Part shown: one piece after another, positions 9,670-28,759 of the stretch
How positions within the stretch are numbered: the first letter of the stretch is position 1
How the letters are laid out: each line of letters starts with the position of its first letter
Source of the DNA: Candidatus Gottesmanbacteria bacterium
Lineage (GTDB): Bacteria; Patescibacteriota; Microgenomatia; UBA10105; UBA927
Length of the DNA stretch: 64,000 bases
Assembly (NCBI GenBank): GCA_963711735.1
Contig: CAVQFA010000003.1
Coordinates: 146,971-210,970 of the forward strand
Direction of reading: 5' to 3'
Position numbers and translations under genes: made by a program
Notes under the pieces: model-generated
Databases searched by the model: none
The model's input: only the letters and a program-made list of their open reading frames with translations
What the model was told of the DNA's origin: nothing

Positions 9670-10683
9670 TCACTTCGAAGACGGTTGCCCCGAAACAAGC
9701 GCAGTTATCTGAACAGGCTCCGTTTCGACAACCCCTTTACCACGAATAACATAAATTGGTAAAAGACGCGTCTGATTTGAAGAATAATAGTATGCAACTT
9801 CAATGTCGGTAACGGATATGTTTTTCGGAGCAGTTTTTAACAGAACAGGTTGAGCATTAGAAGACCCCACTAGGATATTTGATATTACAGAATGCCCGAG
9901 CATCAGATTATTGATGGCGTCTTGTGCTGAAATAACGGGAATTATACCCTTTTCTTCCGTCATTTCCGGAAGAATATACACCATAAACCCTATCGGTTCC
10001 TGGTTTGTGTTGAAACGGACCCACGCAGACGGCAGCTCAGCGTCTTTTACATATACAGGAACTCCTTGTAAAGACGCTTTAAAATCTACCTGAGCAACCG
10101 TTGCTAATGCAGATTTTGTTGTTTGAGTGTTTCCGCCGGACCCCGACTGAAAATATGTCGTTTTGCTGACAGAATATTGCAGGGATGGAGACAATAATCC
10201 CAACCCTTTTAAAAAAGAAAGCGCTGAGCTTTCGAGCTCTCCGGGTGATCTCATCCCTTTGGTGGAAGAGGTTGTGTTATTGATAAATGACACTTCCTGC
10301 GGATCACCGACGGAAGATAATGACTTTTTTTCTTTTGAATATAACATCATTTGTCCCCTTGTAGATTCTATGATTTTTGGTTGTTCGGTAAACCCGAGAG
10401 CAGCAGCCACGCGAGACAGAAGAGACGAAGCGTCCTTTTTTGACAGCACATACGAAGGTACGGCTGTGGGAAGTTGTGGTGTCTGATCAATAGTATAAAG
10501 AGGAATGTTGTTGACAACAGGCGTTGGAAAACGTGGGCGTTCAGACGGAAGAACCGTCGGTCGCGGAGCATTTATGCCCGGCTTACTCTGTCGGCGTTGT
10601 CCCAACCACGCGTTTAATACCCCGCCCAATATAAGCGCTACAACAAAAAGCGCACCAAGAAGAATAAGCTGTTTTTTTTCCAT
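9670..10683 (-). CDS. N-terminally anchored extracytoplasmic protein, last gene of the T4SS-like operon (possible VirB8-like role)
   Basis: Single N-terminal TM 'LILLGALFVVALILGGVLNAWL' followed by a ~300-aa domain. Position after the M23 hydrolase gene in the operon. Confidence 0.4.
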   Translation of the reverse strand: MEKKQLILLGALFVVALILGGVLNAWLGQRRQSKPGINAPRPTVLPSERPRFPTPVVNNIPLYTIDQTPQLPTAVPSYVLSKKDASSLLSRVAAALGFTEQPKIIESTRGQMMLYSKEKKSLSSVGDPQEVSFINNTTSSTKGMRSPGELESSALSFLKGLGLLSPSLQYSVSKTTYFQSGSGGNTQTTKSALATVAQVDFKASLQGVPVYVKDAELPSAWVRFNTNQEPIGFMVYILPEMTEEKGIIPVISAQDAINNLMLGHSVISNILVGSSNAQPVLLKTAPKNISVTDIEVAYYYSSNQTRLLPIYVIRGKGVVETEPVQITALVSGQPSSK

Positions 10684-10689
10684 ATGTCT

Positions 10690-13359
10690 TTACGGACAAC
10701 CGGCAGGCAGAAACGAAAAATCCGCCCCGCGCAGCTCATAGTGTAAATGTATTCCCGGACACCAGGACTCCCCACAGCCGGATCCATACGTCGACCCCGT
10801 TGCGTCCATAGTGCCGATTTCTTCTCCGGCATTAATTACAATGGGTGGTGTAGAGGGGTCATTATCGTGGGCGCTGTCATACGCCGTTTTTACTCTCGGG
10901 TCCACGGTTAATAAATGTGCGTACATTGTATAAAAGTTTGAACCCTCCGCACTCTTTGCAACCAGTATGACAAAATTACCATAACTTCCGTTTTCAAACG
11001 TGTTTGCGGGTATACCGTCGTGATATTGGGCAACAAATCCATCATGAGACGCGTATATTGGCGTTCCTTCGGCGTTGGCGATATCATATGCGTTGGCGTT
11101 TGAGTGGCTGAATGATCCGCCGGGAGATTGGGTAATCGTTCCGCTGGCAGGGCACGATGTGATTGTTGCTATAGGCGGCTCACCCTCTCCTGTATACGCC
11201 CATGACACAGGCACGCTGCTCCATGGTGCTCCGGGAACTTCAGGGCCTCCAGGGCCTGCCCCGACGGGTGCAATAAGGGCTGCATCACGGGCTATCTCCT
11301 GTGGAATTGTCCCTCCTGTTACCGATGAAAGACCCGGAACAAGTCCCGTAGAGAATAAAACAACACAAGCGATGATGGCAAGAGTTACGACAATTGGACC
11401 CTTATCTTCTTTAGGGAGAGTGCGTGTGCCTGTAAAATACTCAATACCGGCTTTGATGTATCTACCAATGAGGGGAAAAGCCTCACCGGTTTTTAATTTA
11501 TTAATGAAAGATGATCCGGCCCGGACAACAACATCTCCGACAACAAAACCCACAATTGCCCCGACAGGCCCTCCAAGCCAACCTATGGCTGATCCTATGA
11601 GTTTACCTAATGCGGTTGAACCGATTTTTGCTGAGATTCCGGTAATGAAAGTTGTAACAACTTTTTTAATTGCTGTCCCGGACGTCGTTTTTCCTGCAAC
11701 GCTAACAATTTCTTGTGTGGCTTTTTTTCCTGCACCCTTTGCTGTCAGCCGGAATACCCACTGAATAATATTACCTGTATCAAGTCCGAGAGACGGTCTG
11801 TCAGTTGTTTTCCTGTAACTTGCTCCTGCAAAATACACACGCAGAAGCTCTACTGTGTATATGACGGAATACCGCTCCTGTACGACAGAAAATACCGGCA
11901 TACCCCCCGTACCTGCTCCGGGAACGGGAAATGCGTATGGGAACACCTTCCTCCCGAGAAACATTGTTTTCAGAAGGCCAGCCGCAGCAGGTTCCGCAAA
12001 ACCCATTGTCCGTGGACCGGTAAGGACAGACATGAGAACGTCATCAACGGCACCACGCAACCCTTCAAGTTTGGGCTTAGGAACGCCGGCTATTTGAACA
12101 GAACGGAGTAGATCCCGGAAATCTTTTGAACCGGCAAGACTTGTACCGACAAGCTCGGCTAAACGCTCAGGTTTTGAGATGATGGAGCGAAGAGTCTCAC
12201 CAATAACCGCAGATTGAACATACATCTGTGCTTTTTCAGGGAGCAAACGCATTATTGCATCCGCTGTTTTTGCAGCGGGCGACGGAGAAAGAGACCGGAA
12301 AAAGGGGACCGGTGCGGATGCGGCAAGCCTGCGCGCGGAGTCGCCGTCAAGAGAAAGAGCGCGGACGGAATCGACAACGCCAATAGACGCATCAATTATG
12401 TGAGAGACTTCTGTTCCCTGATATGACGGTTCGTCTGCGACGCTTTTTACGGCAGCATAATAAACACCCGCACTTTCTGACTTCTCGGCTCCTTCTTCGA
12501 GCGACAGACGGGTCTGAAAAATATCTTCCTTCGAAGGAATCCGGTTGGGAAAAGCAGAGCGTAAAACGCGCGCATGCGCAATAATTTCTTCTCCATATAC
12601 TTTTTTATCTTTTGGTGTATAAGGAGTAAGAACAGCCGCCTCAACATATCCGACGCCGGGAGTTTTAATTATGGTTTCCATTTCCTGCGTAACTTCTTTT
12701 GCCGCAGCCCTTACGATTGTTTGTGCAACGGGAGGAGTTTGTGTGTGGGTTTGATCCTGAATTGTCTGAATCGCTGTTTCGGAAAGAGCATAGCATAAAA
12801 CGTCCCGTTCGTTCTGACCCGGAGCGACCTTTTCCAGTTGTTGCAGAAGCTCTGCCTCCTCACGTTTTTTAAGTTCATCCGCCACCCCCTCAGGAAGGAC
12901 TTCTGCATCCGGATGAGCGCGCCGTTCTATTCGCAACCTGTTTATGTATGCATCAACAAGCCGCCGGACGGATTCTGCTTCTAACCCCCTTTGTTTAACA
13001 GTCAGCGTCCTTGCTTTTTCATATTCTTCCTGAATAAGAGCAAGCTCAGCCGTTGGCACATAACTTTCCACATGCTGTTCAGCAGCCTCTTCACTTTTAT
13101 GAATCGTCAGAAGCCTGGAATGTATCTTACCGGAAAAATCATTGAACGCACGCGTAAACGCTTCGTTGTCAAATGATAACGGAGTAGCGTCTGTTGTGAT
13201 GGCGGAATAAAATTCTTCGTACGCCCTCCGGATTTCCTCGTCGGTTTGGGTTTGCGCGTAAAGGATAAGCTTGAGAGCCGACACTCCCAAAGACGACGGG
13301 GTTTCCGCAAGAACAGCAAAATCCAGGGCTTTTTCGGAGATATCAGTTTGATCTGCCAT
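10690..13359 (-). CDS. large membrane protein with C-terminal M23 (LytM-type) peptidoglycan endopeptidase domain
   Basis: C-terminus 'GTPIYASHDGFV...GNFVIL...YAHL...AGEEIGTMDATGSTYGSG...PGIHLHYEL' matches M23 motifs. Central TM helices are preceded by a ~550-aa N-terminal domain. Confidence 0.8.
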   Translation of the reverse strand: MADQTDISEKALDFAVLAETPSSLGVSALKLILYAQTQTDEEIRRAYEEFYSAITTDATPLSFDNEAFTRAFNDFSGKIHSRLLTIHKSEEAAEQHVESYVPTAELALIQEEYEKARTLTVKQRGLEAESVRRLVDAYINRLRIERRAHPDAEVLPEGVADELKKREEAELLQQLEKVAPGQNERDVLCYALSETAIQTIQDQTHTQTPPVAQTIVRAAAKEVTQEMETIIKTPGVGYVEAAVLTPYTPKDKKVYGEEIIAHARVLRSAFPNRIPSKEDIFQTRLSLEEGAEKSESAGVYYAAVKSVADEPSYQGTEVSHIIDASIGVVDSVRALSLDGDSARRLAASAPVPFFRSLSPSPAAKTADAIMRLLPEKAQMYVQSAVIGETLRSIISKPERLAELVGTSLAGSKDFRDLLRSVQIAGVPKPKLEGLRGAVDDVLMSVLTGPRTMGFAEPAAAGLLKTMFLGRKVFPYAFPVPGAGTGGMPVFSVVQERYSVIYTVELLRVYFAGASYRKTTDRPSLGLDTGNIIQWVFRLTAKGAGKKATQEIVSVAGKTTSGTAIKKVVTTFITGISAKIGSTALGKLIGSAIGWLGGPVGAIVGFVVGDVVVRAGSSFINKLKTGEAFPLIGRYIKAGIEYFTGTRTLPKEDKGPIVVTLAIIACVVLFSTGLVPGLSSVTGGTIPQEIARDAALIAPVGAGPGGPEVPGAPWSSVPVSWAYTGEGEPPIATITSCPASGTITQSPGGSFSHSNANAYDIANAEGTPIYASHDGFVAQYHDGIPANTFENGSYGNFVILVAKSAEGSNFYTMYAHLLTVDPRVKTAYDSAHDNDPSTPPIVINAGEEIGTMDATGSTYGSGCGESWCPGIHLHYELRGADFSFLPAGCP

Positions 13360-13389
13360 ACCACTCTCTATTATAGCGTAAACATCTCT

Positions 13390-15285
13390 CTATAATTTGT
13401 TCTGGGAAGTCTGTTCGACGGTAAAAATCGGGCGGGAGTTGTTTGTTTTTTTAGGTTGAATAATTTCCGGTGCGGGTATGGGTTCTTTCTTTTGAGGCAC
13501 AACCGTTTTTCTCTCCGCAATTTCCTGCGGTTTTGTCGTTGCTATGGCGTGTTCTTCGGGAGACGCGATGATCCGGACAGCCGCGTGAGCCGGGCCGGCA
13601 AAGAAAAGCCCTTCTCCGACGTCGGCAGAAAGAAGGAGGTGTTTTTCTCCCTCAGAAAGATAAAATATTTCCGCAACTTTATCTATTGCCGCTGAAGACT
13701 GTTTGAGCAGAAGCTGCATGCTTGAGTTTTGGATGATTGCCTTGCCGAGATCCTGTGACAGGAAATCTTCAACATCCTGGGTTATTGTTGTCACCCCGAG
13801 GTAATACTTGCGCGCGCGTTTGGCTATGGAGTTTAAAAATTGCGCTGAGTCGGGATACTTCATCATATACCAGGCCTCATCAACTATAAGGAGTCTCCGT
13901 TTAATGTCCCTTCGGATCCTGTTCCATATATAATCAAGGATGAGGTACATGGCGATAGGACGAAGTTCATCCTCAAGATCACGGATGGAAAAAACCGTAA
14001 GCTGATTATTGATGTTGACGTTGGTGTGTTGGTCAAATACACCGACAAGCGATCCTTTTACGAATTTTTCTATCCGGTCAGCAAGCCCCCGGGACACCGC
14101 ATCTTCCATACCGATGAGTGTTTTATATAAATCTTCTACCAAAGGAGGCTCGCGTGTATGGGTGGCCGGATCCGGCGTTATGCCTTTTTGCTTGTACGTG
14201 AGTATTAGAGCACGGTCAAGGATTGCATCTTCGCTCGGCGTAAGCTCGCCCATGACAACACGGAAAAACCCATGAAGCGACAACACTTTCTGGGAAAGTT
14301 CGCTTTCTCCGCTTATGCCTCCTGAGAGGGCAGTCAGATCAAAAGGATTTATTTTTGTTCCGGAGGAAAACGTAAACTGGATAAGAGTCCCTCCGAGAGC
14401 CTGGGTTAAAGGACCGTACTCATTTTCCGGATCAATGACGATAACCTCAGTGTTAAACATCATTGACCTGAGAATTTCAAGCTTAATGCAGTATGATTTT
14501 CCGGCACCGGATTTACCGAACACAACAGCGTTTGCGTTTTCAAGCGTAAAACGGTCAAAAATAACAAGAGATTCATTCCCCTCATTGATGCCGTAAAGGA
14601 TGCCCTCGTTTGCCGTCAGCTCTGATGTGGTGAATGGAAATGTAGTGGCAAGCGACGTGGTGTCCATATTGCGCGTAACAACAATCCTGTCCTGGGCCAT
14701 TGGAAGCGTTGTTTTAAATCCCTCTTCGGACTGCAGAAGAGTTTTTTTTGTCATAATCAGAAGTGAGGCGAGAGTTGCCTCAATCTGTTTTGTGGTTTTA
14801 TTAAGTTCCTCAATTGATTCAGCTGGAATGGTGATATAGAGTCCAAACTGGAAAAACCGTTCCGAGCCCTTGGCAAGCTCCTGTTGGAGAGAAAGCGCGT
14901 CCTCGAGAGCAACCTGTATGGAGGGTTCCACCACACGCCCGCGCTTGAAGTCCGACTGGATAGTGGCTTCCATTTCACCCACTTTCCGCTTGAGGTTTTC
15001 AAGAACCTCCTCAGAACGCGTCGGATAGATAAACATGGATATCTCGAGAGCATGGTTAAAAGAGATGATTGGCTCGAGCCAGTTGGCGCTTACGAACCTC
15101 GGGTACCCCGCAACAAAAAGTGTCCTGTGGTACTTTTCACCCACTTTTATATTGTCGAAATCTACCTCAATGGACGGAGGCGCGATAATGTCTGCTGTTG
15201 TCATCGGTCCGGTTGGTTCAGCTCCGGACGCGCTTTGTGTTTGATTGGGATTTATGATGGTGTCGAGCAGTTTTGGCAGGTTCAT
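13390..15285 (-). CDS. virB4: VirB4/TrbE/TraE-family type IV secretion ATPase
   Basis: Walker A 'VVFGKSGAGKSYCI', Walker B 'RRLLIVDEAWYMM'. N-terminal 'YHRTLFVAGYPRFVSANWLEPIISFNHALEISMFIYP' resembles Gram-positive VirB4 homologs. Confidence 0.8.
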   Translation of the reverse strand: MNLPKLLDTIINPNQTQSASGAEPTGPMTTADIIAPPSIEVDFDNIKVGEKYHRTLFVAGYPRFVSANWLEPIISFNHALEISMFIYPTRSEEVLENLKRKVGEMEATIQSDFKRGRVVEPSIQVALEDALSLQQELAKGSERFFQFGLYITIPAESIEELNKTTKQIEATLASLLIMTKKTLLQSEEGFKTTLPMAQDRIVVTRNMDTTSLATTFPFTTSELTANEGILYGINEGNESLVIFDRFTLENANAVVFGKSGAGKSYCIKLEILRSMMFNTEVIVIDPENEYGPLTQALGGTLIQFTFSSGTKINPFDLTALSGGISGESELSQKVLSLHGFFRVVMGELTPSEDAILDRALILTYKQKGITPDPATHTREPPLVEDLYKTLIGMEDAVSRGLADRIEKFVKGSLVGVFDQHTNVNINNQLTVFSIRDLEDELRPIAMYLILDYIWNRIRRDIKRRLLIVDEAWYMMKYPDSAQFLNSIAKRARKYYLGVTTITQDVEDFLSQDLGKAIIQNSSMQLLLKQSSAAIDKVAEIFYLSEGEKHLLLSADVGEGLFFAGPAHAAVRIIASPEEHAIATTKPQEIAERKTVVPQKKEPIPAPEIIQPKKTNNSRPIFTVEQTSQNKL

Positions 15286-15289
15286 ACTG

Positions 15290-16001
15290 TTATGATGACG
15301 GGTTTACCCCGGGCGATGTCGCGGGGTTTATTTTGGGCGCCTCAATGTGTCCGCCCTGGTTTTGTACAAGTCCGGCAGTGAGCGGCTGTCCGGGATTATA
15401 GATGGTAAAAAATAACTGTGACAGTTCGTCGTTTGTAAGCTGGTGGGCACGAAGTCCGAGCCTGGATACGAGACGGATAACATGATCTTTCTTCGGCGTA
15501 AGAACCGTGAGGGCTTTCTCGATAATATATTCTTTCGGATACGGCAACCCCCGCGCTTTTCCGCCAAAAAGCACTTTCGTGGATGTTCCAAGCTCCAGAG
15601 AGGAAAACGGGATGACCACATAAAACTTTTTATCCAGTACGTCTTTTTCTTTTACCGTTGACGCGACAAAAGTTTTATATGCATTGATACTGTTTTTCAG
15701 TTTTTGATTTGTTTGTTTACCCTCCTGATCATCAAGGAGCTTAAGGTAGGATGAGATATCTTTCCGTTGTGTCCGGACAAGTACTTGGATCGGAAAGGAC
15801 AGTGAGTTGAGAAGTCCCGCGTACGCATAAATGATTGCTTCGCGTTCCTTTTCGGACAAGCAACCCAAAATTTACGGCCGTTGTCGTGACGATCAACGTG
15901 CACGATCCGTCGGCAAATAGAACAATATCGCGGACTATGTCGTTTATTTCAGTAAAACGCTGTGTTGATGCTTTGATAGGAACAACTGGTTTTTGTTTCA
16001 T
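15290..16001 (-). CDS. T4SS-associated protein directly upstream of virB4, apparently frame-broken (ORFs 15741..16001 and 15290..15868)
   Basis: The 86-aa ORF 'MKQKPVVPIKASTQRFTEINDIVRDIVLFADGSCTLIVTTTAVNFGLL' continues in another frame as '...SEKEREAIIYAYAGLLNSLSFPIQVLVRTQ'. The break sits at the homopolymer run 'aaattttggg' near 15868. Confidence 0.45.
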
Positions 16002-16009
16002 ACGGGTAC

Positions 16010-17284
16010 TTATGTTTGATTTTGTCCGAATACTTCCTTGGCAAGTTTTTCCCTCGACAGCTCTTTTTGGCTTTTAGCAATAATCTCTATTGGAGGGAGC
16101 ACTGTACCGGAAAGTGTAATCTGTGCACGGTCGAACACAAACCGGTTTCTCGGATCTTCCACCTCGATAATATACGTGTTATTAGGCAGGGGGCTTGCGG
16201 CGGCAAACTGACCAAGGCGGTTTGTCTTAAGAGCACGAACCGGCACATCATCTTTATCCCGTACGGTAACCAGAACGCTTGGAAGCAAATTGTTTTCATG
16301 ATCCTTGATGATTCCCGTTACGACATTTGGAAACGTTGTGAGTTTCGGGAGTCCCGCCCGGATTGCGCTGTCCGGCGTTATGACATTAACCGATGGTTTT
16401 GAGGGCTGTTGCATTTCTTGTGCAACGCGGTTGGGTGTCTGCTGCGGTTTTTGTGTTTGTGCAGACGAAAGCTGGATACGGAGTTTTGTTATCTCGTCCT
16501 GGGTTTTGTTTTTATCCGTCAGAGCGCCCGTTAATTCTTTTTGAAGCTCTACGATACGCTGTTCGTTTTGTGTCTTTTTTTGCAGCTCTCCGCGAAGCGC
16601 AGAAAGTTCTTTTTTGAGAAGTTCCATCTCGGGATTTATTTCGGGAGTTTCCGCTTTCAGCGGGGTCGGTTCCGTCGGCACCTGTGTCTTATGAGTCGGA
16701 GGTAAAGGCGTCTTTACGCCTATCGGAGAAAAATTTTGAACACTCGGCATAGGCGTTGTTGTTGAAGGGGTTGTGCGTTTTACTTCAGTCTTTAGAGCCG
16801 GATTTTTGTTTTGCGTTGACGGAAAAAATCCCGGGAGCACTCCGGGAAAACGAGGTTGGGTTTGAGATGCTGATGGCGGAGGAAGGGTTGCCTCTTGTTT
16901 TGCAGAAGGTGTGTGATGTGTGACAGATCCCGCACTGTTACCCTGTGGTGGCTTGGTTGGAGATGCCTGCACAGGCTTTTGTGTCGGAGTCGGAACAACT
17001 TCGCGCTTCCACACATAGAGAGTCGGACTATAGATGCTCTTGATAAACGCGAGAATCCAGACATCCATCGGACGCTCTTCAATCGGAATAAACGCCAAAC
17101 CAAATCCAAGAAGAAACACCCCAACCCCGAGGGGGAAGGTAAAAATCACAGGGAGAGGAAGTTTATAGCATACATACCCGACAATGGCTCCGAGAGCTAA
17201 ATACCCGAACTGTTTGAGAGTCATGTCACCTATGAGGCGAAACTGAAAAGTAGTGACATTTTGCGGGACAGGATGTTGTTCCAT
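16010..17284 (-). CDS. membrane protein with 2 N-terminal TM, Pro/Thr/Gln-rich linker, coiled coil and C-terminal domain (VirB10-like architecture; hypothetical)
   Basis: 'LKQFGYLALGAIVGYVCYKLPLPVIFTFPLGVGVFLLGFGLAFIPI', then a P/T/Q-rich linker, then coiled coil 'ELLKKELSALRGELQKKTQNEQRIVELQKEL'. First gene of the minus-strand operon. Confidence 0.5.
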   Translation of the reverse strand: MEQHPVPQNVTTFQFRLIGDMTLKQFGYLALGAIVGYVCYKLPLPVIFTFPLGVGVFLLGFGLAFIPIEERPMDVWILAFIKSIYSPTLYVWKREVVPTPTQKPVQASPTKPPQGNSAGSVTHHTPSAKQEATLPPPSASQTQPRFPGVLPGFFPSTQNKNPALKTEVKRTTPSTTTPMPSVQNFSPIGVKTPLPPTHKTQVPTEPTPLKAETPEINPEMELLKKELSALRGELQKKTQNEQRIVELQKELTGALTDKNKTQDEITKLRIQLSSAQTQKPQQTPNRVAQEMQQPSKPSVNVITPDSAIRAGLPKLTTFPNVVTGIIKDHENNLLPSVLVTVRDKDDVPVRALKTNRLGQFAAASPLPNNTYIIEVEDPRNRFVFDRAQITLSGTVLPPIEIIAKSQKELSREKLAKEVFGQNQT

Positions 17285-20159: not shown

Positions 20160-20957
20160 ATGAAGCAAATTGATCCGGAAAAGGAAATAGCAAACATAGT
20201 ATCGTTTATTACAAACGCATTTCAAAAAGCCGGGTTTACACGGGGGGTTATCGGTGTTTCCGGCGGAGTGGATTCTGCTGTTTCACTTGCGCTTGCAATC
20301 CGCGCACTTGGCGCGGAGAATGTATTTCCCGTTTTGCTCCCTCACGGTTCCCTGTCTACCCGCTCTACACTGGATGCGATGGAACTTGTCGGTTCACTTG
20401 GCATACCCAGAAACAACATAACACGAATTGATATAGAGCCTGCCGTCCGTGAAATTTCCAAATCCGATCCGGGTATGGACAGACTCCGGCGCGGAAATAT
20501 CATGGCGCGTGTGAGGATGACGTGCCTCTTTGATCAGGCAAAAAAAAGAAACGCTCTTGTCGTCGGAACGGAAAACAAGTCCGAGCACATGCTTGGATAC
20601 TTCACGCGGTTTGGTGATGAGGCAAGCGACGTTGAGCCCTGTATTCATTTATATAAAACCCAAATCTACAACCTTGCCCGGGCACTGAAAATTTCTGAAA
20701 CAATTCTGAAAAAAACTCCTTCTGCAGACCTTTATTTCGAGCAGACCGACGAAAGTGAGCTTGGATTTACCTACAAAGATGCTGATGAAATCATGTATTT
20801 ACTGTACGACGAAAAGAAAACGGAAGCAGAAGTCGTGTTGCGCGGATTTAGCGATGGGGTCGTAAAAAAAGTCAAGCTCCGGACAGAACAAAACGCGTTC
20901 AAACACAACATGCCTATTTGTTATGTTCCGTCACTATATGAAAAAATTGTCGGATAA
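20160..20957 (+). CDS. nadE: NH3-dependent NAD+ synthetase
   Basis: PP-loop 'GVSGGVDSAVSLALAIRALG' and 'LVVGTENKSEHMLGYFTRFGD'. Start placed at the internal ATG after the nadD stop. Confidence 0.85.
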   Translation: MKQIDPEKEIANIVSFITNAFQKAGFTRGVIGVSGGVDSAVSLALAIRALGAENVFPVLLPHGSLSTRSTLDAMELVGSLGIPRNNITRIDIEPAVREISKSDPGMDRLRRGNIMARVRMTCLFDQAKKRNALVVGTENKSEHMLGYFTRFGDEASDVEPCIHLYKTQIYNLARALKISETILKKTPSADLYFEQTDESELGFTYKDADEIMYLLYDEKKTEAEVVLRGFSDGVVKKVKLRTEQNAFKHNMPICYVPSLYEKIVG

Positions 20958-21034
20958 ATAGTTTACCCAAAACAGACAAGCAGATTGCGCTAATAGGATC
21001 GAAGAGATACAATTATTTATAATATCTTTGGCGT

Positions 21035-24000
21035 ATGGCAAAATCTATGAGTGAACGGGAACCAACATATACACCGGTAGCAAAAACCATAGAACGCATA
21101 TTAGTGGCAATTGCTAAGCCTGAAAACGCTGAGAAGGTGAAAAAACTTCGAAAAGAAGAAGCCCTGAAAAAAGCACAACAAAGACAGAAAGAAATTTTCA
21201 GCCGTTTTAATAGGGAAAAAAACACGACAAACCCGGAACAAAAAGGAATAAAGGATTATGGGGAAGAGGAAATCAGAAAAGCAAAAGAGATAACGGAAGA
21301 ACTGAAAAGCAGCGGCCAGCACGCATCAAGCAATAAGTGGGTAAGAGAAAACAGATATGGAATTTCTTCAACTCCCGACACTCTTTCCACAGCCAAAATA
21401 CAACTCGAGACAGCGAGAAAAATTGCAGGACATGATAATAGTCCTCTCGGAAACATAAACCCCGAGGACCTGCAGCACAGCTCTGTGGCGGCGTATGCGC
21501 TGGCAGAATGGTCCATGCTTCCTCCTGAATTGCGTAAAAATCCGAACGTCGCGCTTACACAGGCAGCCCGTCTGGCAGCCTCCGTTAACGCAGATATGAG
21601 CGTTGAGGAACTCAACGAAATCAGGAGGGTATTGAACGCCTTTAAAAGTGAAATACGCACGCTCCGCGATGACCCTGATCGCAAAGACGGATTTAACATT
21701 GAGGACCGGAAACTAGACAATATTCTTTCCGAAATGGTCGGAGGTATTGTGACGGACGACAAATTTGTCCTTTTTGATCCCGCAACAGAATTTACCGGAA
21801 CGCTTTCACTGGATCAATCAAATTTAAAAACCCTACTTCAGGATTATAATATACAATTAGACATTTTGGATCCAAACGATGACGAAGCCATAAAATTATT
21901 AGAAAAATTCAGACTAGAGCTTGCTGGAGGAACATACAGAAAGATAGATACAGACCCAAAAAACAAAAGCGGAACCCGAACTGTTCCCATTGACAGAGAT
22001 AAAGCAAGACCCTACATTGATAAGCTTAAAACAAAAATCGAAGAATTACAGGAAAAACAAAAAATAATGCGCCAGGAGCAGTATATCCAAGAAAGGGAAG
22101 CGCAGGAGAGCCAGATGTGGTTAAAACCAAGCGAGGAACTGCATTTCGGAGAGAATCCGGAGGAAGTGTTGGAAGGGTGGATGCGGCGAATATACGCAGA
22201 AAGATCCATGGGAACAGAAGACGTGGCAAATATGAGACTTAGACTGTTCCAATCATTTCTTGTTGGCGATACATGGAAAGCTCTCTATATTAAATTCCAT
22301 CCTGCTGAATTTCCTAAGGGAATGTCGCAGGCAAGGATAGATTCACACATTGAGAGCGTGAGGGAAAGATTGTTTGAATTTACAGAGAAATCAATGATGC
22401 TGAAATTTGCGGCATCATCCATTTGGGATGGGAGTAAAAATTTTGAACAGGCAGTTAACGTTTTACGGAGAGTAGGATCCCGCGGTTGGGAGATTGTATA
22501 TATGGGTAATAACGGTATGAACGGGAAAGCATACGAGATACTTGAAGAAGAACTGTCAATAGTAACAACCAATCCAAAACCGGGAGAAATGCCCCTCCGT
22601 TTATCTTCGGAACTTCTGGAGCGTGCGCTACAAAACACACGCAATCGTATTGAACGGAACAAAACGCAGTATAAAGAAATATTCGGTAAAAAAGTTACCA
22701 CCGAAGACATCAACCATTTTGTCCGTGCGGGTGAGGTGCTTGCCGACGTCAGGCAGAAAGTCGTTCTTGCTGTTATGCGCGGCAGGGGCCCCGGGGAGAG
22801 ACCGCTGTCTGACATAGAGCCTCCTTCATCATCATTTAGAAGCACCAGCTACGCGGAAAATATCGCCGCTGTTATGGACTGGTACCGGTATGGACCGGAA
22901 AAATGGGGATATTTAACTGAGGGGGCCAAACGCGAACTTGAGTTTTCCTGCGAATTCATGGGAACAATCAGCGGGTTTGACAGCACAGTTGATTTAGAGA
23001 TAGCAAAACTGCGCGCCGACGGATCGTATCGCACCGAACGGGATAAAACATTGAAAGAGCGGTGGGGTGAACACTATGAGAATTGGAAAGAGACGAAACA
23101 CATAGATATGCACCTCGCATCATTTGTAGCAGGAACAGGATTATCCGGTGAAATCGCAGATCAGGAATACCGCCGGTTGCTCATGGTCGGGTATGGCAAA
23201 AAACGGCTCGGAGAACTCCTTGAAATGTATGATGTAGATTCCAGTGGTTGGCGCATAGCAATGGTCCTCCAGGAAAACGTACGGTTTTTCAAGGACGCGG
23301 ACACTCGGGCGCTGGGTTACTGGCTCAGATACGCAGGTAACGACTTTTTACGGGCTGAGGCAGGAGAAGCAGATGATGTTTTCCGAAACGGCGCTCACAA
23401 TGCCCAAAAACAATTAGATGAAGTACGGTTTATAGAAAACGGAGTAACGCTTAAAGCCGAGTGGAATGATGATTTCAGCGTATATAACGTTCTGAAACGT
23501 ATCGGAAAATATGAAAGTCACTGGAACGGATTATGGTTATATGAGAAGGGAAACGAAGAGTTTGTTAACTGGTGGAACAGTGCACCTGTTCAGGAGGCAG
23601 CGCGGAAGCTGACGGGATTAGCGGGTGACGTGGATTATATTCAGGCATACCGGTCAGCTATAGAAAAACATTCGTTGATTATAGGTATAGGTGATAAAAC
23701 AAGTCTTCCTGTTGTCGATTATTCCGAAGGAATTGCCGGTTTAACTCCGGAACAAAAACGGGCAGTATCAAAGGCGTTCGGATGCAGCGTTAACCAGGTT
23801 GATACAAATCAGGCAGTACAGAACCACTTTTCATTTATGGGCGAGCTTTCCAAACAAGTGCTGAAAGACGAAGAACTTATGGCATTTAAAGACCCCCGGT
23901 ACCGCCAGTATTTCAAACGGACGCAATTTACCGGAGACGCGCGTCTCGGGATGATAGAGGACCTTGAACGTTTGCCGGAAGGAGCACCGGGAAGCACGGT

Positions 24001-24685
24001 CCGTACCGGCGCAAAAGCAAAATCCGAAGCAGAGGCAAAAATAAAACGGTATTCTACAATAAGTACCGCAGAGGGAGAGGGAAGCACGGATCAGATGGTT
24101 CGGGCTTGGAACGACCTATCTACGTTTGGCATGCAGCTGCCGATTTTGTTAAAAAGTATTTACGAAGCCACAAACGAAAAAACGTTACTTGAGGGTTTAA
24201 CTAAACTTGTGGGTACTGAAGAACCGTATGCCGGAAAACAGGATGCACTCCTGGCATCAACTGCAATTCTTGCAGGATACGGCCGGATGGGAAAAGTAGA
24301 GAGTTTTTGGGTCGATTTGTGGGGAATGGATAATCTGCCCTGGACAACAGAATCAAAAAGGTATCTGGGAGATATGGGGATGGTTTTACAGCATAGAGAC
24401 CTACACCAATTGAAGGAAAAGTGGGAGCTTATACAATCCCGGCTCGAACTTTATCCTGAGTTGAAACCGGTAGTTGAAGCACTTGATGGGTATTGGGGTT
24501 CGTCCTGGAAACGATTGGATGGCGTACGGAAGGGGCTTCCTTTTATGAAAGATGAAGTATTCTGGTTGATGCAGAGTAAAAACGCCGTATTCATCGGAGC
24601 CGGCATTCTCATTGCTTTACTTGGAAAAGAAGCATTTAGTTCTATGGGCGCTTCAACCAGCGGGGGCGAATCCCATCATTCTTAG
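21035..24685 (+). CDS. giant (1216 aa) Lys/Glu-rich hypothetical protein with C-terminal TM anchor
   Basis: Continuous 3.65-kb ORF. No signal peptide; C-terminal hydrophobic 'VFIGAGILIALLG'. No recognisable catalytic motif. Confidence 0.6.
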   Translation: MAKSMSEREPTYTPVAKTIERILVAIAKPENAEKVKKLRKEEALKKAQQRQKEIFSRFNREKNTTNPEQKGIKDYGEEEIRKAKEITEELKSSGQHASSNKWVRENRYGISSTPDTLSTAKIQLETARKIAGHDNSPLGNINPEDLQHSSVAAYALAEWSMLPPELRKNPNVALTQAARLAASVNADMSVEELNEIRRVLNAFKSEIRTLRDDPDRKDGFNIEDRKLDNILSEMVGGIVTDDKFVLFDPATEFTGTLSLDQSNLKTLLQDYNIQLDILDPNDDEAIKLLEKFRLELAGGTYRKIDTDPKNKSGTRTVPIDRDKARPYIDKLKTKIEELQEKQKIMRQEQYIQEREAQESQMWLKPSEELHFGENPEEVLEGWMRRIYAERSMGTEDVANMRLRLFQSFLVGDTWKALYIKFHPAEFPKGMSQARIDSHIESVRERLFEFTEKSMMLKFAASSIWDGSKNFEQAVNVLRRVGSRGWEIVYMGNNGMNGKAYEILEEELSIVTTNPKPGEMPLRLSSELLERALQNTRNRIERNKTQYKEIFGKKVTTEDINHFVRAGEVLADVRQKVVLAVMRGRGPGERPLSDIEPPSSSFRSTSYAENIAAVMDWYRYGPEKWGYLTEGAKRELEFSCEFMGTISGFDSTVDLEIAKLRADGSYRTERDKTLKERWGEHYENWKETKHIDMHLASFVAGTGLSGEIADQEYRRLLMVGYGKKRLGELLEMYDVDSSGWRIAMVLQENVRFFKDADTRALGYWLRYAGNDFLRAEAGEADDVFRNGAHNAQKQLDEVRFIENGVTLKAEWNDDFSVYNVLKRIGKYESHWNGLWLYEKGNEEFVNWWNSAPVQEAARKLTGLAGDVDYIQAYRSAIEKHSLIIGIGDKTSLPVVDYSEGIAGLTPEQKRAVSKAFGCSVNQVDTNQAVQNHFSFMGELSKQVLKDEELMAFKDPRYRQYFKRTQFTGDARLGMIEDLERLPEGAPGSTVRTGAKAKSEAEAKIKRYSTISTAEGEGSTDQMVRAWNDLSTFGMQLPILLKSIYEATNEKTLLEGLTKLVGTEEPYAGKQDALLASTAILAGYGRMGKVESFWVDLWGMDNLPWTTESKRYLGDMGMVLQHRDLHQLKEKWELIQSRLELYPELKPVVEALDGYWGSSWKRLDGVRKGLPFMKDEVFWLMQSKNAVFIGAGILIALLGKEAFSSMGASTSGGESHHS

Positions 24686-24702
24686 TAAATTCCTGTCAGT
24701 TT

Positions 24703-25212
24703 TTAACCTCCGTGTTGCTCTTGCTGTTCTCCGGCTTGTTTTGGTTGAGGTGGTGCAAGCTTAGGCCCTTTCAGATTTTTCAGGTAATACGCAGTTGATG
24801 CAAGCTGCATAACCGTTTGATAGGATGATCCTGCGGCTTGTCCAAGCGCTGCTCCGACCGGTACAACCTGTTTTGCTTTCAGACTTTCTTTGAATGCATT
24901 TATAAACTGCGGTATGAGTACAAGTACTGCGATAGAAAACAGGCTTGTAATTGTGTCAGGCGCCACTCCGTTGCCCATAAACAGAGGTGGAGCCCAAAGA
25001 GTTTGATTTTTTCCTCCGATAGAAGCAGAAGAAACTTGGGCCGTAAGTCCGTATGATATAAGCAGTGTGCCGGCGGTTATGGGAAACGCCATGAGGTTTC
25101 CGACAAGTCCGCGTATCCATCCTCCAAACGCGTTATTTCCCGGAATGGCACCGAAGAGAAGCTGTATAGGACCCAGCAGAAGTCCAAGTATGATTTGTAC
25201 GTAACACCCCAA
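24703..25212 (-). CDS. VirB6/TrbL-like protein, C-terminal portion (different frame; probable continuation of 25077..25973)
   Basis: Further TM helices and a Gln/Pro-rich tail 'PPQPKQAGEQQEQHGG', typical of TrbL C-termini. Overlaps the upstream ORF by 136 nt. Confidence 0.5.
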   Translation of the reverse strand: MGCYVQIILGLLLGPIQLLFGAIPGNNAFGGWIRGLVGNLMAFPITAGTLLISYGLTAQVSSASIGGKNQTLWAPPLFMGNGVAPDTITSLFSIAVLVLIPQFINAFKESLKAKQVVPVGAALGQAAGSSYQTVMQLASTAYYLKNLKGPKLAPPQPKQAGEQQEQHGG

Positions 25213-25973
25213 CAGCGTGAAAAAAATGCGGACGTCACAAACAGAAGGAAAATCGCTAAAAGAAAAAGGATTATAAGCGAAATCCCGCCAACACCAACCA
25301 GCGCAGCCACTGCGAGAAAAGGGACAATGGGCGCTGTTATTCCCAGACCCAACAGTATTACTCCCGCCGCAAGAGTCGATACTCCGCCGGCTACAATTGT
25401 AGGTCCTGGCCCAACCACATCTATGAGCATTCCAAACAGGCTACCGGCTCCGAGCGGAAATAATAAATCTATTCCATCCTTTAGCTTGGCACCGAGGAAC
25501 GCATTGATGACATCGGGTGTCACCTGGATAATTCCTGACTGACCAAAAAGTCCGATTACCAGAAGAATGAGAAGATACATTATATCAATGAGTATCGCAA
25601 CAATTGCATAAGAGAATGTGATGAGAAGAAGCGTCACGACTATTTTAGGCAGGGAATTTTGGACTGTAATTACCGTTTTAGGATCTATTTTTTTCCGAAA
25701 CATGATCATAAACCCAATAATAATCATGACGACAGCAGGAATGGCATACGATATATTTCTGAACACTTTCCACATAGGGAGAAGCGGAGCCAATCCGGCA
25801 AACCCGATTCCCTGAGCGTATGTTTGTTTGGGAATAAACCCGAGCGATTGTCCTGTGTCGTTTATAAAAGCGCTATGTGGACGCTGGAGGGCTTTGATAC
25901 ATTGGATAATTGAGTTTGTGAACCCCAACAAAGCACCGCTTTTTTTTTCACCCGTTCTGCATATTCGGATCAT
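25077..25973 (-). CDS. VirB6/TrbL-like polytopic membrane protein, N-terminal portion
   Basis: Multiple TM helices: 'AIPAVVMIIIGFMIMF', 'IVVTLLLITFSYAIVAILIDIMYLLILLVIGLF', 'GGVSTLAAGVILLGLGITAPIVPFLAVAALVGVGGISLIILFLLAIFLLF'. Confidence 0.55.
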   Translation of the reverse strand: MIRICRTGEKKSGALLGFTNSIIQCIKALQRPHSAFINDTGQSLGFIPKQTYAQGIGFAGLAPLLPMWKVFRNISYAIPAVVMIIIGFMIMFRKKIDPKTVITVQNSLPKIVVTLLLITFSYAIVAILIDIMYLLILLVIGLFGQSGIIQVTPDVINAFLGAKLKDGIDLLFPLGAGSLFGMLIDVVGPGPTIVAGGVSTLAAGVILLGLGITAPIVPFLAVAALVGVGGISLIILFLLAIFLLFVTSAFFSRCWGVTYKSYLDFCWVLYSFSSVPFREITRLEDGYADLSETSWRFP

Positions 25974-26295
25974 TTTTATACGTGCCTTCGGGAACAGTTA
26001 CACCTTCAACAGCGCCAAAATTTGTTCTGTAATGACGTTCATGATTATCAAGACTAGCGGAAAAAATGTATGACGATTTGTTTACGTTGCCGGTTTGGTC
26101 AGTAGCCTGCCTCCCTTGAGGGTAGCTCGTAGTCCAGTCGTTGGATTGTGCAAAGATCCGTGGTGAATGGACGGCAAACAATCCAATGAAAATAAGCATA
26201 ACCGCAACGGCCGTCTGTCGGAGGAAACATAAGCGACGCAATCTGTCAAAGGTATTCATATATGTATTATCCCAAAAACGTATAAGCGAAATCAA
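25948..26295 (-). CDS. small secreted hypothetical protein
   Basis: Signal peptide 'AVAVMLIFIGLFAVHSPRIFAQS'. Lies between the pilin array and the VirB6-like gene. Confidence 0.45.
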   Translation of the reverse strand: MISLIRFWDNTYMNTFDRLRRLCFLRQTAVAVMLIFIGLFAVHSPRIFAQSNDWTTSYPQGRQATDQTGNVNKSSYIFSASLDNHERHYRTNFGAVEGVTVPEGTYKNDPNMQNG

Positions 26296-26304
26296 GAAAA
26301 CTTT

Positions 26305-26625
26305 TCATGGTATTATCGTAATTGAAAATTTCGTTACGTCAACACCCGTGAATTCTTTGATAAGAAGAAGGATGAGATACGCAACTGCTATAATCACAAG
26401 CCCGATGATTGCTCCGGTTATCGTACCTTTTGCCTTTTCAAGCTTTTTCTGGTCGCCTCCCGCAAAGAGGAAGTTGAACCCTCCCATGACGAGCATGAGA
26501 AACAGTCCGATACCCGCAATGGCGATAATAAAACGGAGAACGTTTTCAAAAAGCGGCTCGAGACACGCAATCTGCGCCACATCATCGCCATTTGGAAGAC
26601 AACTACTCCAGTCAACAAACGCCAT
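26305..26625 (-). CDS. VirB2/TrbC-like T4SS pilin paralog 1
   Basis: Two hydrophobic helices flank the family motif 'MGGFNFLFAGGDQKKLEKAKGTITGAIIGLVIIAVAYLIL'. Own promoter and an upstream terminator. Confidence 0.7.
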   Translation of the reverse strand: MAFVDWSSCLPNGDDVAQIACLEPLFENVLRFIIAIAGIGLFLMLVMGGFNFLFAGGDQKKLEKAKGTITGAIIGLVIIAVAYLILLLIKEFTGVDVTKFSITIIP

Positions 26626-26704
26626 ATATTCTCATTATCACCCAGAAAATATATTTATACAAGAACACGGTAGGGTACATAATGTAGAGAATGCCACCAA
26701 AAAC

Positions 26705-26733
26705 CCCGCTTTTGGCGGGGTTTATCGAAATTC
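26705..26733 (-). terminator. Rho-independent terminator after pilin gene 2
   Basis: 'aaaaaCCCCGCttttgGCGGGGttt' is a GC hairpin flanked by T/A runs on both strands. Confidence 0.55.
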
Positions 26734-26741
26734 ACAAAAAA

Positions 26742-27116
26742 TTATGGTGTATACGGAAGAGGTATCTTTACTCCTGATCCCAAAAGCGTAATACCAAGGA
26801 ATTGCTGTACCAGCATCATGATTGCCCACGCTGCTCCGACAATAATAAGTCCGACAACTGCATGCGTGATTTTGTTGCGTGCTGCCTCCATACCGGACTT
26901 GTCGCCGCCCGCGGTGATCCATTGAATTCCGCCGAGAATGAGATAAAGAAACGCAAGAAGCGCAGCTATGATCATAAGCAAACCGACAGCGGCTCCGATA
27001 AGCTCACCCAGACTTGTGATCTTAATAAGTTCCGTGTTTCTGGTAACTGCTATTGTGCTGGGATCGTCCTGTGCATATATAACTGGTGCTAAGAAATTCA
27101 TACGTTCCTCCTTCAA
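26742..27116 (-). CDS. VirB2/TrbC-like T4SS pilin paralog 2
   Basis: 'LILGGIQWITAGGDKSGMEAARNKITHAVVGLIIVGAAWAIMMLV'. Confidence 0.7.
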   Translation of the reverse strand: MKEERMNFLAPVIYAQDDPSTIAVTRNTELIKITSLGELIGAAVGLLMIIAALLAFLYLILGGIQWITAGGDKSGMEAARNKITHAVVGLIIVGAAWAIMMLVQQFLGITLLGSGVKIPLPYTP

Positions 27117-27207
27117 TGTATACTATAGTTGATTATATCGTACCTCTAATTGTGTCGCAACTCTTCCTACTTTGTCAATACACGCAATATGAGATCAGGT
27201 GTACACA

Positions 27208-27627
27208 TCAGCACGGTTGTCCCGGTGCGCACGTTGGGGCGGGTACTCCCCCGGGTCCGACATTTGATGGAGAAAGAACGCTGGGAAAAGGAATGTTCGG
27301 GAAAGAAATTCCAAAAAATGTGCCAAGAAAAAGCATAATTGCCCAGACGGATCCCACAATGAGAAGGCCGACAATTGCATGCGTTATTTTATTCCGTGCA
27401 TCCTCTAGCTTCGCTTTGTCTCCGCTTGCTGTAATCCATGATATACCGCCAAGAAGGAGATATACGAGGGCAAAAATGAACGAGAATATAAAAAACGCAG
27501 CAATAAAAGCACCCAATAAAGATCCAAAAACTAAACCTCCGGTTGTATATTCACCCGGATTTCCGCTTCCGCCCAAAAACGAAGGTAAAACAGGATTTTT
27601 CAGTTGTGCTAAAAGATGTGTGCTCAT
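27208..27627 (-). CDS. VirB2/TrbC-like T4SS pilin paralog 3
   Basis: 'LLLGGISWITASGDKAKLEDARNKITHAIVGLLIVGSVWAIMLFL'. Confidence 0.7.
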   Translation of the reverse strand: MSTHLLAQLKNPVLPSFLGGSGNPGEYTTGGLVFGSLLGAFIAAFFIFSFIFALVYLLLGGISWITASGDKAKLEDARNKITHAIVGLLIVGSVWAIMLFLGTFFGISFPNIPFPSVLSPSNVGPGGVPAPTCAPGQPC

Positions 27628-27630
27628 ATA

Positions 27631-28065
27631 TTATGGTGTTCCTCCGCTTCCGGGCAGCTCAAGCTGTTGTATTACCGTTGCCGGATCTATAAGCGTGTCA
27701 AACCCGAAGAACATCCCGACAAGCGCGAGTATCGCCCAACCCGCAATAACGATGACAAGACCGATAAACGCGTTCGTTATTCTGTCTCTTGCCTGTTGGA
27801 GTTTTCCCTTGTCTCCGCCTGAGGTAAGCCAGTTCAAGCCTCCCACAAGGAACTGGAAGATAAACCAGATAAGTGCAGCAATTGTCATGATGCCGATGAT
27901 GGATGATACGACCTGAGTGACTTTGGTAAGTGCACTGACCGCACCGGCACTTCCTCTGCCTATAACATCGGACCCGATGTTTCCAAACGGACCTAACCCC
28001 CCTCCGCCAATCGTTCCGAGGTCAGTGCCAACAGGATCTGCTGCATAAATGTGTTCTGATATCAT
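27631..28065 (-). CDS. VirB2/TrbC-like T4SS pilin paralog 4
   Basis: 'FLVGGLNWLTSGGDKGKLQQARDRITNAFIGLVIVIAGWAILALV'. The gap to paralog 3 is 3 nt. Confidence 0.7.
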   Translation of the reverse strand: MISEHIYAADPVGTDLGTIGGGGLGPFGNIGSDVIGRGSAGAVSALTKVTQVVSSIIGIMTIAALIWFIFQFLVGGLNWLTSGGDKGKLQQARDRITNAFIGLVIVIAGWAILALVGMFFGFDTLIDPATVIQQLELPGSGGTP

Positions 28066-28068
28066 AAA

Positions 28069-28437
28069 TTAGTTACCCGGACCATATATTTTCGGATTCA
28101 GCATGAATCCGGGATCTCCGAATATCAGGTATCCGAAAAGTGCTGCCAGCACAAATGATCCGATGAGAATGACAAGTCCGATAAGCGACTGCCAGATTCT
28201 CGCCCAGGCAGCAGTGAGCGCCTTTGCATCACCTGCCGCCGTCATATACTGATATCCGGCTATTATAATATTAAAAAAAGCAAACGCCCCCGTCACGGAA
28301 AATATAAGGCGGAGAACGTTAGTCAGAAGCGCAATGATACCCGTGTTATAAGAGCCATACGACGCGTTCATGGGGTTTGTAACAGTGCCGATAACTGATG
28401 ATGCGTCTGCAAGCACTTGTATATAATTCATAGACAA
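28069..28437 (-). CDS. VirB2/TrbC-like T4SS pilin paralog 5 (more divergent)
   Basis: 'IIAGYQYMTAAGDAKALTAAWARIWQSLIGLVILIGSFVLAALFG'. Confidence 0.65.
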   Translation of the reverse strand: MSMNYIQVLADASSVIGTVTNPMNASYGSYNTGIIALLTNVLRLIFSVTGAFAFFNIIIAGYQYMTAAGDAKALTAAWARIWQSLIGLVILIGSFVLAALFGYLIFGDPGFMLNPKIYGPGN

Positions 28438-28447
28438 TAAATATGTA

Positions 28448-28759
28448 CTACGGCAATGGCGCCGAAAGGAGCGTCATGCCTGTTAATTTTTCCAATATTT
28501 GGACGATCCAGTACGATACGACAATCAGGATAAGACCCAGAACCGCTCCTGTTATCGTTTTTTGTCCCTGTTCGAGCTTTTTGGTATCACCGGCTCCAGC
28601 GCCCATTATAACGCCGAATCCGCCCAACACCAAGAGGAGGAAGGTGAGAACCGCCGCTAACATAAAAGCATTTTTTACGATGATGTTCACGAGATCACCA
28701 AATGATGCAATCGGAGACGGAGCAACGGTGCCAAGATCCAGAGCAAAAACACGGTTCAT
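28448..28759 (-). CDS. VirB2/TrbC-like T4SS pilin paralog 6 (first in operon)
   Basis: 'LLVLGGFGVIMGAGAGDTKKLEQGQKTITGAVLGLILIVVSYWIVQILEKL'. Confidence 0.7.
   Translation of the reverse strand: MNRVFALDLGTVAPSPIASFGDLVNIIVKNAFMLAAVLTFLLLVLGGFGVIMGAGAGDTKKLEQGQKTITGAVLGLILIVVSYWIVQILEKLTGMTLLSAPLP

Follow-up and report, generated by a model that had tools for sequence, protein, structure and literature searches.

Background

The patescibacterial type IV secretion system (T4SS) gives one of few molecular points of access to these ultrasmall, host-dependent bacteria, and in the only species tested it is essential. In Candidatus Southlakia epibionticum, an origin-proximal T4SS cluster (SEML1_0006-0019) without recognisable coupling or relaxase proteins has been described, which comprises six predicted pilins in an essential array and which transposon sequencing (Tn-seq) showed to be essential for epibiotic growth (Wang 2023, PMC10633639). 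Here, I show that a 64-kb stretch of a Candidatus Gottesmanbacteria contig (CAVQFA010000003.1), the whole of which was analysed and is referred to as the window, carries a further Microgenomatia example of this system, set beside the probable origin of replication (oriC).

The system was found in 2,417 of 3,035 Patescibacteria genomes surveyed (Quinonero-Coronel 2025, PMC12102498). In that survey the patescibacterial VirB4 proteins form a clade nested in the mating-pair formation class FATA (MPF-FATA), with TrsD, PrgI/VirB3 and VirB6 encoded nearby, and VirB2 arrays of 2-11 genes occur chiefly in Microgenomatia and Saccharimonadia; hydrolases with an M23 domain are present, relaxases are almost absent, and the clusters lie near dnaA/dnaN. 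The authors concluded that this system was recruited to a role distinct from conjugation. A 2025 review (PMC12857230), in which the T4SS genes and the pilin array are likewise essential for epibiotic growth of S. epibionticum, repeats this account and speculates on a pilus conduit.

Both the system and the way it is interpreted are thus in print already, and an earlier reading of the window made from its letters alone (the sequence-only reading) coincides with them: it proposed a conjugation-derived pilus or translocation machine put to another use, and the domain evidence below, together with the lack of a relaxase or integrase in the window, supports that proposal. What the window contributes is a tentative assignment of the VirB6 position, on structural grounds, to a family that Pfam does not cover, and a soluble VirD4-like ATPase conserved beside the cluster in this clade.

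Results and discussion

A probable core T4SS beside the replication origin

The feature map (Table 1) was built from an open reading frame (ORF) listing with translations, scanned against Pfam and NCBIfam; all scans and ORF counts refer to the window. Transmembrane (TM) and other hydrophobic segments were predicted by a Kyte-Doolittle scan. The host is a Gottesmanbacteria-like patescibacterium of the Microgenomatia, judging from the organism names attached to homologues and related loci (Gottesmanbacteria, Microgenomates, Patescibacteria).

A search for DnaA boxes with TTATCCACA, allowing up to one mismatch, returned five sites in the spacer between dnaA and dnaN, and the cumulative GC-skew minimum, at about 8-9 kb, coincides with this cluster of boxes; the adjacency to the origin proposed by the sequence-only reading is borne out. 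The T4SS genes begin 15 nt past dnaN, in convergent orientation to it, and from 9670 to 17284 they form a single minus-strand unit comprising the genes for p337, the M23 protein, VirB4, the TrsD-like protein and the PrgI-like protein. The genes nadD and nadE, confirmed by the Pfam scan, separate divergent units of the core genes, again as had been read from the letters.

Among the approximately 60 ORFs of the window, neither Pfam nor NCBIfam detected a relaxase, a VirB11-type ATPase, an integrase or a recombinase, in agreement with the absence of relaxase, VirB11 and DNA-processing genes noted before. The MOB relaxase and oriT of a conjugative element were not found in the window by these scans, nor was the integrase or recombinase of an integrative and conjugative element (ICE), att repeats not having been part of the search. 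On Embleya and Paenibacillus plasmids, which served as a control, a relaxase is annotated within a few genes of VirB4. The GC content of the cluster (0.45-0.48) equals that of its surroundings.

Related genomes keep the linkage to dnaA and dnaN. The order in about 20 related loci, metagenomic and genomic, is VirB6> <big <nadE <nadD <T4CP1 PrgI> TrsD> VirB4> M23> p337> <dnaN <dnaA, where arrowheads give the direction and "big" is a large gene of the opposite strand. Across the loci that keep this synteny, VirB4 is 69-79% identical, vs 63-68% for DnaA and 49-56% for DnaN. In relatives further away (VirB4 64-67% identical) the genes are co-directional, the order again ending at dnaN-dnaA and being without the insertion of T4CP1 and nadDE: pilins, a further gene, VirB6, PrgI, TrsD, VirB4, M23 and a bitopic protein. 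Between VirB6 and PrgI, a large gene lies on the opposite strand. A VirB4 that is more conserved than DnaA and DnaN, in a conserved gene order, argues for a vertically inherited core function under strong purifying selection and not for an integrated element. The region is very probably the core, vertically inherited T4SS of a Microgenomatia patescibacterium, derived from the MPF-FATA conjugation machinery of monoderm bacteria and stripped of its DNA-processing module.

Table 1. Position, strand and supporting evidence of the T4SS genes and of the genes flanking them in the 64-kb window.
Feature	Position	Strand	Remarks
T4CP2, C-terminal 279 aa, cut by the window edge	3..842	+	Pfam TraG-D_C, T4SS-DNA_transf
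dnaA	6994..8364	+	genomic context, not a T4SS part; Pfam Bac_DnaA in the DnaA of related locus L001
dnaA-dnaN spacer, probable oriC	8365..8545	.	five DnaA-box-like sites at 8375..8510
dnaN	8546..9655	+	genomic context; L001 orthologue has DNA_pol3_beta domains
p337, bitopic 337-aa protein with one N-terminal TM helix	9670..10683	-	last gene of the VirB4 unit
889-aa protein with C-terminal M23 metallopeptidase domain	10690..13359	-	Pfam Peptidase_M23 37.9 bits; TM at 651-681
VirB4 ATPase	13390..15285	-	NCBIfam NF045971 402.6 bits; Pfam P-loop_TraG 85.6 bits, AAA_10
TrsD-like gene, VirB4 N-terminal-domain homologue	15290..16001	-	split in two frames; repaired product 236 aa
PrgI/VirB3-like protein	16010..17284	-	Pfam PF12666 PrgI 33 bits (cutoff 27), residues 5-86; weak CarboxypepD_reg
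T4CP1, VirD4/TraG-like ATPase, 723 aa	17427..19598	+	divergent from the PrgI-TrsD-VirB4 unit
nadD	19601..20155	+	between T4SS units
nadE	20160..20957	+	between T4SS units
1216-aa protein	21035..24685	+	single C-terminal hydrophobic segment at 1178-1196
VirB6-like polytopic membrane protein (moderate support)	24703..26259	-	repaired length 518 aa; four single-nucleotide indels
Six VirB2-like pilin genes (106, 124, 139, 144, 122, 103 aa)	26305..28759	-	Pfam PF18895 T4SS_pilin, E 2.7e-10 to 2.9e-4
Seventh VirB2-like pilin, 124 aa, unlinked	35366..35740	-	PF18895 31.8 bits (cutoff 26.6); aligns with the other six

Components of the machine

The VirB4 ATPase, already recognised from the letters, exceeds the NCBIfam cutoff of NF045971 conju_CD1110 (325 bits) and is consequently of the MPF-FATA/CD1110 type; with T4CP1, which scores above its Pfam cutoffs, both ATPases on which the sequence-only reading hinged match their families. 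VirB4 aligns with the Thermoanaerobacter VirB4 structure (PDB 4ag5, E=3e-46) and has at least 8000 homologues, the best 120 of which are 71-81% identical, those with a name being Gottesmanbacteria or Patescibacteria; the best plasmid-borne homologues reach just 38% identity. The protein spans positions 185-730 of the 752-position CD1110-type model, so that the N-terminal domain is absent. A homologue of that domain is the product of the TrsD-like gene immediately upstream, which is frameshifted, had been overlooked before and was recovered by tblastn with the 220-aa protein of a relative. Once repaired, it gives a weak match to NCBIfam TrsD and to positions 128-233 of VirB4_plasma, a model of full-length mycoplasma VirB4, and 40 of 40 TrsD-like orthologues match likewise (best E=3.8e-12). 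VirB4 lacks the very domain that its neighbour supplies, and the two are taken to form a two-piece VirB4; the adjacency of the TrsD-like gene to virB4 is also part of the published definition of the Patescibacteria-clade T4SS (PMC12102498). In one related metagenomic locus, the TrsD-like gene (L084, 9360..9956) has three in-frame stops within the TrsD-aligned region.

The protein encoded two genes upstream of VirB4, both here and in nearly all long related loci, had been read as VirB8/VirB10-like; Pfam identifies it instead as PrgI, that is VirB3-like. Its two TM helices (29-70) are followed by a long, extracytoplasmic extension made of a linker rich in Pro, Thr and Gln, a coiled coil and, C-terminally, a beta-sandwich-like domain. 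Downstream of VirB4, as in the relatives and in a Pontibacillus locus discussed below, the 889-aa protein, correctly called an M23 cell-wall hydrolase in the sequence-only reading, takes the place of the peptidoglycan hydrolase (VirB1/PrgK).

A VirB8-like identity had also been proposed for p337. The place of this gene is conserved while its sequence evolves fast (15-27% identity among 19 positional orthologues). No relation in Pfam, NCBIfam or the PDB was found, a word-indexed homology search returned p337 alone, and no VirB8-type model matched the protein or any of the 19 positional orthologues. Its bitopic topology agrees with that of VirB8, PrgL and TcpC, yet the single-sequence AlphaFold2 model is unusable for judging whether the extracytoplasmic part has an NTF2-like fold (predicted local distance difference test, pLDDT, 36). 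The VirB8 likeness is unsupported rather than disproved, and p337 is best regarded as an accessory protein.

The VirB6 position calls for more comment. What the sequence-only reading had given as a single VirB6/TrbL-like frame ending at 25973 measures 1271 nt and does not form one ORF, since the gene extends further and lies in several frames; the likeness to VirB6 itself finds moderate support in the predicted fold. No sequence family matched the repaired protein, or the best 120 of its 415 homologues. Profile searches of PDB sequences with alignments of the VirB6-like, TrsD-like and p337 families returned chance-level matches only. The closest homologue of full length was modelled with AlphaFold (alignment of 50 sequences, pLDDT 78.8), and in a Foldseek comparison of this model with the PDB the five best matches were DotA and four TrwI/VirB6 chains, with probabilities of 0.30-0.90, E-values of just 0.1-0.7 and low TM-scores. 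The gene product is a candidate VirB6-type protein, with moderate support from this model.

The six-gene pilin array read from the letters is confirmed: all six proteins match PF18895 (four above the gathering score, two just below), can be aligned (26-35% identity, measured against the array's first pilin), and have two hydrophobic helices each and a shared GG..TAGGD..K motif. A seventh pilin gene, not noticed before, lies 7 kb from the array, so that in total five of the seven pilins pass the gathering score.

Coupling-type ATPases

The larger of the two genes read as VirD4/TraG-like, encoding the type IV coupling protein (T4CP) homologue T4CP1, matches four Pfam T4CP families above their gathering scores (TraG-D_C 31.4, TrwB_AAD_bind 28.7 and T4SS-DNA_transf 25.9 bits, as well as DUF87), the scores being modest and barely over the cutoffs; in NCBIfam there are sub-cutoff matches alone (CD1115, CedD, TraD). 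Walker A (GKTGTGKST) and Walker B (YLYVDEF) motifs are readable in the translation, and an extra N-terminal domain of about 330 aa is present. No TM helix was predicted by the Kyte-Doolittle scan in T4CP1 or its L001 orthologue, whereas the orthologues of the second ATPase, T4CP2, and the T4CP of an Embleya plasmid do have an N-terminal hydrophobic anchor. T4CP1 is 29.5% identical (E=3e-61) to the latter, which sits between VirB4 and a relaxase. Of 32 long related loci, 20 encode it beside the cluster, at a distance of two genes from virB4.

T4CP2, at the left edge of the window, had been taken for a second copy. It does carry T4CP domains in Pfam, but at 40% identity to T4CP1 the fragment is a paralogue. 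Its orthologues in a genome scan are about 782 aa long and 77-90% identical across Gottesmanbacteria, Levybacteria, Roizmanbacteria and Woesebacteria, that is, more conserved than VirB4; on sequence grounds, T4CP2 is a distinct and very conserved paralogue and no duplicate. The statement that the system lies on both sides of oriC is correct for T4CP2 alone; as its orthologues are mostly not near dnaA in relatives, this arrangement is a peculiarity of the present genome. In the relatives (L011 5916..10840 and equivalents in L006-L034), T4CP2 orthologues come after two conserved genes without annotation (about 700 and about 150 aa), a class II ribonucleotide reductase and a cobalamin adenosyltransferase, and before an ATP-grasp-like gene. 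No relaxase was detectable by Pfam among the neighbours of the T4CP2 orthologue in a close relative.

Comparison with the known patescibacterial system

The window agrees with the Patescibacteria-clade T4SS in its MPF-FATA-related VirB4 with an adjacent TrsD, in the PrgI/VirB3-like protein and the putative VirB6-like one, in the hydrolase downstream of VirB4 and in the tandem array of divergent VirB2-like pilins with PF18895 domains, which are six in S. epibionticum too; no relaxase was found in the 64 kb, and the set is chromosomal, beside dnaA/dnaN.

Some features differ. The survey found just 148 of 5,713 T4CPs near virB4 (PMC12102498), vs a soluble VirD4-like ATPase that accompanies virB4 in most long loci considered here. 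Sampling or model thresholds may account for the gap, the latter because the Pfam scores of T4CP1 barely exceed the cutoffs. Likewise, 22.6% of the Microgenomatia VirB3 homologues were linked to virB4 in the survey, vs a PrgI-domain protein by virB4 in nearly all long loci here. VirB6 homologues were reported as scarce in Microgenomatia (PMC12102498); the family occupying the VirB6 position in the window has a predicted VirB6/DotA-like fold and is invisible to sequence models. Further differences are the presence of nadD, nadE and the 1216-aa protein between the units, and the frameshifts of two genes in this assembly.

Relatives outside the Patescibacteria

The monoderm MPF-FATA systems (CTn2 CD1110/CD1115, pCF10 Prg, pGO1 Trs, and modules of Paenibacillus urinalis and Embleya) share with the window a CD1110-family VirB4 (30-38% identity) followed by a cell-wall hydrolase, as well as PrgI, a polytopic protein of VirB6-like type and a VirD4-like ATPase. 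The plasmid modules have a relaxase near VirB4, an NlpC/P60 hydrolase and, as seen for Embleya, a membrane-anchored T4CP; in the window, by contrast, no relaxase was found, the hydrolase is of the M23 type, VirB4 is split, the pilins number seven and the locus is chromosomal, at the origin.

The best plasmid-borne VirB4 homologue (37.5% identity) belongs to Pontibacillus sp. ALD_SL1 and is encoded on a 0.9-Mb replicon typed non-mobilizable (NZ_CP062975.1). The locus (L163, 7035..17027) begins with two pilin-like genes, one of which is annotated as 'Mbov_0395 family pilin-like conjugal transfer protein', and continues with a polytopic 779-aa protein, a PrgI-like protein with two TM helices and a TrsD-like protein, followed by a short VirB4 and then an M23 endopeptidase; no relaxase is present. 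A similar set with a T4CP1-like gene is found on Priestia megaterium pFDU301A (L166). Both loci are collinear with the patescibacterial one and lie on replicons typed non-mobilizable; they differ in their Bacillota hosts, in residing on secondary replicons of 0.9-1.1 Mb, and in having two pilins vs six or seven. Along the same line, the Embleya plasmid NZ_CP108778.1 (L164), which encodes VirB4, a T4CP and a relaxase, has an unannotated ORF (approximately 5850..6100) with the pilin motif GG..AGGD..K upstream of its VirB6-like gene.

Reviews describe the T4SS of Gram-positive bacteria as being without VirB2. The similarities above suggest that, among monoderm systems, VirB2-like pilins are not restricted to the Patescibacteria. 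The collinear, pilin-bearing relatives in Bacillota and Actinomycetota bear on the origin of these pilins, either from the system of a monoderm ancestor or by borrowing from diderm systems.

Proposed mechanism and function

If the parts work as their homologues do in T4SSs that have been studied, the assembly might proceed as follows. The PrgI/VirB3-like protein would anchor the two-piece VirB4 ATPase (the TrsD-like N-terminal domain plus VirB4) at the membrane, where the divergent VirB6-like polytopic protein would act as platform, while the M23 hydrolase would open the peptidoglycan and make room for the machine. VirB4 would then pull the seven divergent VirB2-like pilins from the membrane and polymerise them into a short pilus or conduit, whose substrates would be fed or received by the soluble T4CP1 and the membrane-anchored T4CP2 acting as substrate couplers.

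The machine most likely serves the host-dependent lifestyle, through transfer of proteins or nucleic acids to or from a bacterial host, or through attachment, because the set is without DNA-processing genes and is essential in Saccharibacteria; plasmid or ICE transfer as its role is unlikely. Two points weigh against the reading as a core, working T4SS: its functional role in this lineage is a prediction drawn by analogy, and five frameshifting indels in two core genes, described below, may mean that the system is not intact in this genome.

A dedicated uptake machine, importing DNA or other macromolecules of the host into a cell unable to make nucleotides, is a conceivable though doubtful specification of such a role. 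The Helicobacter pylori ComB and archaeal Ced systems are comparable, being machines with a VirB4-family ATPase and no relaxase that are put to non-conjugative use; ComB is a diderm VirB2-10 system without VirD4, and Ced uses CedA/CedB. Import has been proposed in the concluding remarks of PMC12102498 and in PMC11665869, and in S. epibionticum the ComEC-dependent competence is dispensable while the T4SS is essential. In NCBIfam, VirB4 and T4CP1 show weak similarity to CedB (E=1.2e-13) and CedD (E=1.5e-9), respectively; these are, however, generic P-loop matches far under the family cutoffs, and the Pfam scans revealed no nuclease, DNA-binding or ComEC-type gene in the cluster. Uptake is a sub-hypothesis of the co-opted T4SS rather than a separate identity for the locus.

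Frameshifts in two core genes

An alignment with orthologous DNA places one extra nucleotide of the TrsD-like gene near 15859 (within 15849..15868), a point across which the gene is continuous in 69 of 75 related loci. The VirB6-like gene has single-nucleotide indels near 25951, 25901, 25875 and 25227, whose correction restores a product collinear with its homologues; a near-invariant MYxxPPAST motif is encoded out of frame between two of them. All five indels are confined to about 2.3 kb of these two T4SS genes, two of them in or beside homopolymer runs (T7; GGG then A9), and a break of this kind was not seen in any other long ORF across the 64 kb.

Two explanations at the level of decoding were considered. 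A prfB-like programmed +1 frameshift at GGG|TGA (approximately 25951) was set aside because it leaves three more corrections to be made in the same gene, two of which flank the out-of-frame conserved motif, and the site in the TrsD-like gene is without slippery or stop context. An alternative genetic code with UGA as an amino acid was rejected, readthrough of TGA not restoring the homology.

The lesions would be either localised consensus errors or very recent events. Were they real, the organism would have very recently inactivated the TrsD-like and VirB6-like genes, or would phase-vary them, and the system would be decaying or switched off in this genome. The concentration of all breaks in two T4SS genes while the other long ORFs are unbroken, the homopolymers at two of the sites, and the in-frame stops in the TrsD-like gene of L084 speak for this. 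It is nevertheless unlikely: of the 41 columns that are invariant in the family alignment, 40 are preserved in the VirB6-like protein after repair (by manual reading), MYxxPPAST is still encoded, though out of frame, the remaining T4SS genes are all intact, and so is the TrsD-like gene in the great majority of the relatives. A pseudogene in decay fits this pattern less well than consensus errors or lesions of very recent date. If the frameshifts proved true, counterparts of genes that are essential in Saccharibacteria would have been lost or switched, and the system would be dispensable or switchable in this lineage.

An improbable reading as a mobile element

It is highly improbable that the locus is an integrated conjugative or mobilisable element still moving DNA with a relaxase located outside the window or of an unrecognised family: a VirD4-like ATPase resembling the relaxase-adjacent Embleya T4CP does lie beside the cluster, large unannotated proteins are encoded at 21035..24685, 4226..6865 and 912..2900, the relaxase scan covered 64 kb of a 567-kb contig, and room has been left for 'very different relaxases' (PMC12102498), but against this stand the ORFs of the window, without relaxase, integrase or recombinase, the unremarkable composition, the T4CP2-orthologue neighbours without a Pfam-detectable relaxase, and a fixed place between dnaN and housekeeping genes with VirB4 better conserved than DnaA, the opposite of a patchy mobile element.

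Neighbouring genes and minor observations

The 1216-aa protein encoded beside the VirB6-like gene has no family match in Pfam or NCBIfam. A large opposite-strand gene recurs at this place in relatives (675-1239 aa), its sequence being highly divergent and the similarity patchy, and its position alone suggests that the protein belongs to the T4SS. A hidden relaxase or an adhesin was considered for it and set aside, there being no family match of any kind and, again, a patchy likeness to its positional counterparts.

Between T4CP2 and dnaA (912..6865) the window encodes lineage-specific, cysteine-rich or secreted-looking proteins of 662 and 133 aa, the latter with a signal-like N-terminus, as well as an 879-aa protein with one TM segment. 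No family matches these proteins, and in the related loci no counterpart of any of them turned up close to dnaA or to T4CP2.

Further away, the stretch 43786..51170 has a low GC content (0.37-0.42, vs 0.45-0.50 elsewhere in the window). Three tRNA-Ser genes, together with an HNH endonuclease gene (43891..44367), border it on one side and a tRNA-Arg gene on the other; besides a Memo/AmmeMemoRadiSam-B-like gene it contains ORFs without annotation (355, 215 and 603 aa), and it is possibly a genomic island. The ARAGORN prediction at 44545..44632, one of five tRNA-Ser genes in 12 kb, has the anticodon ACT at an odd loop position. Finally, the tmRNA at 41696..42112 has a predicted tag peptide of 32 residues, which is unusually long.

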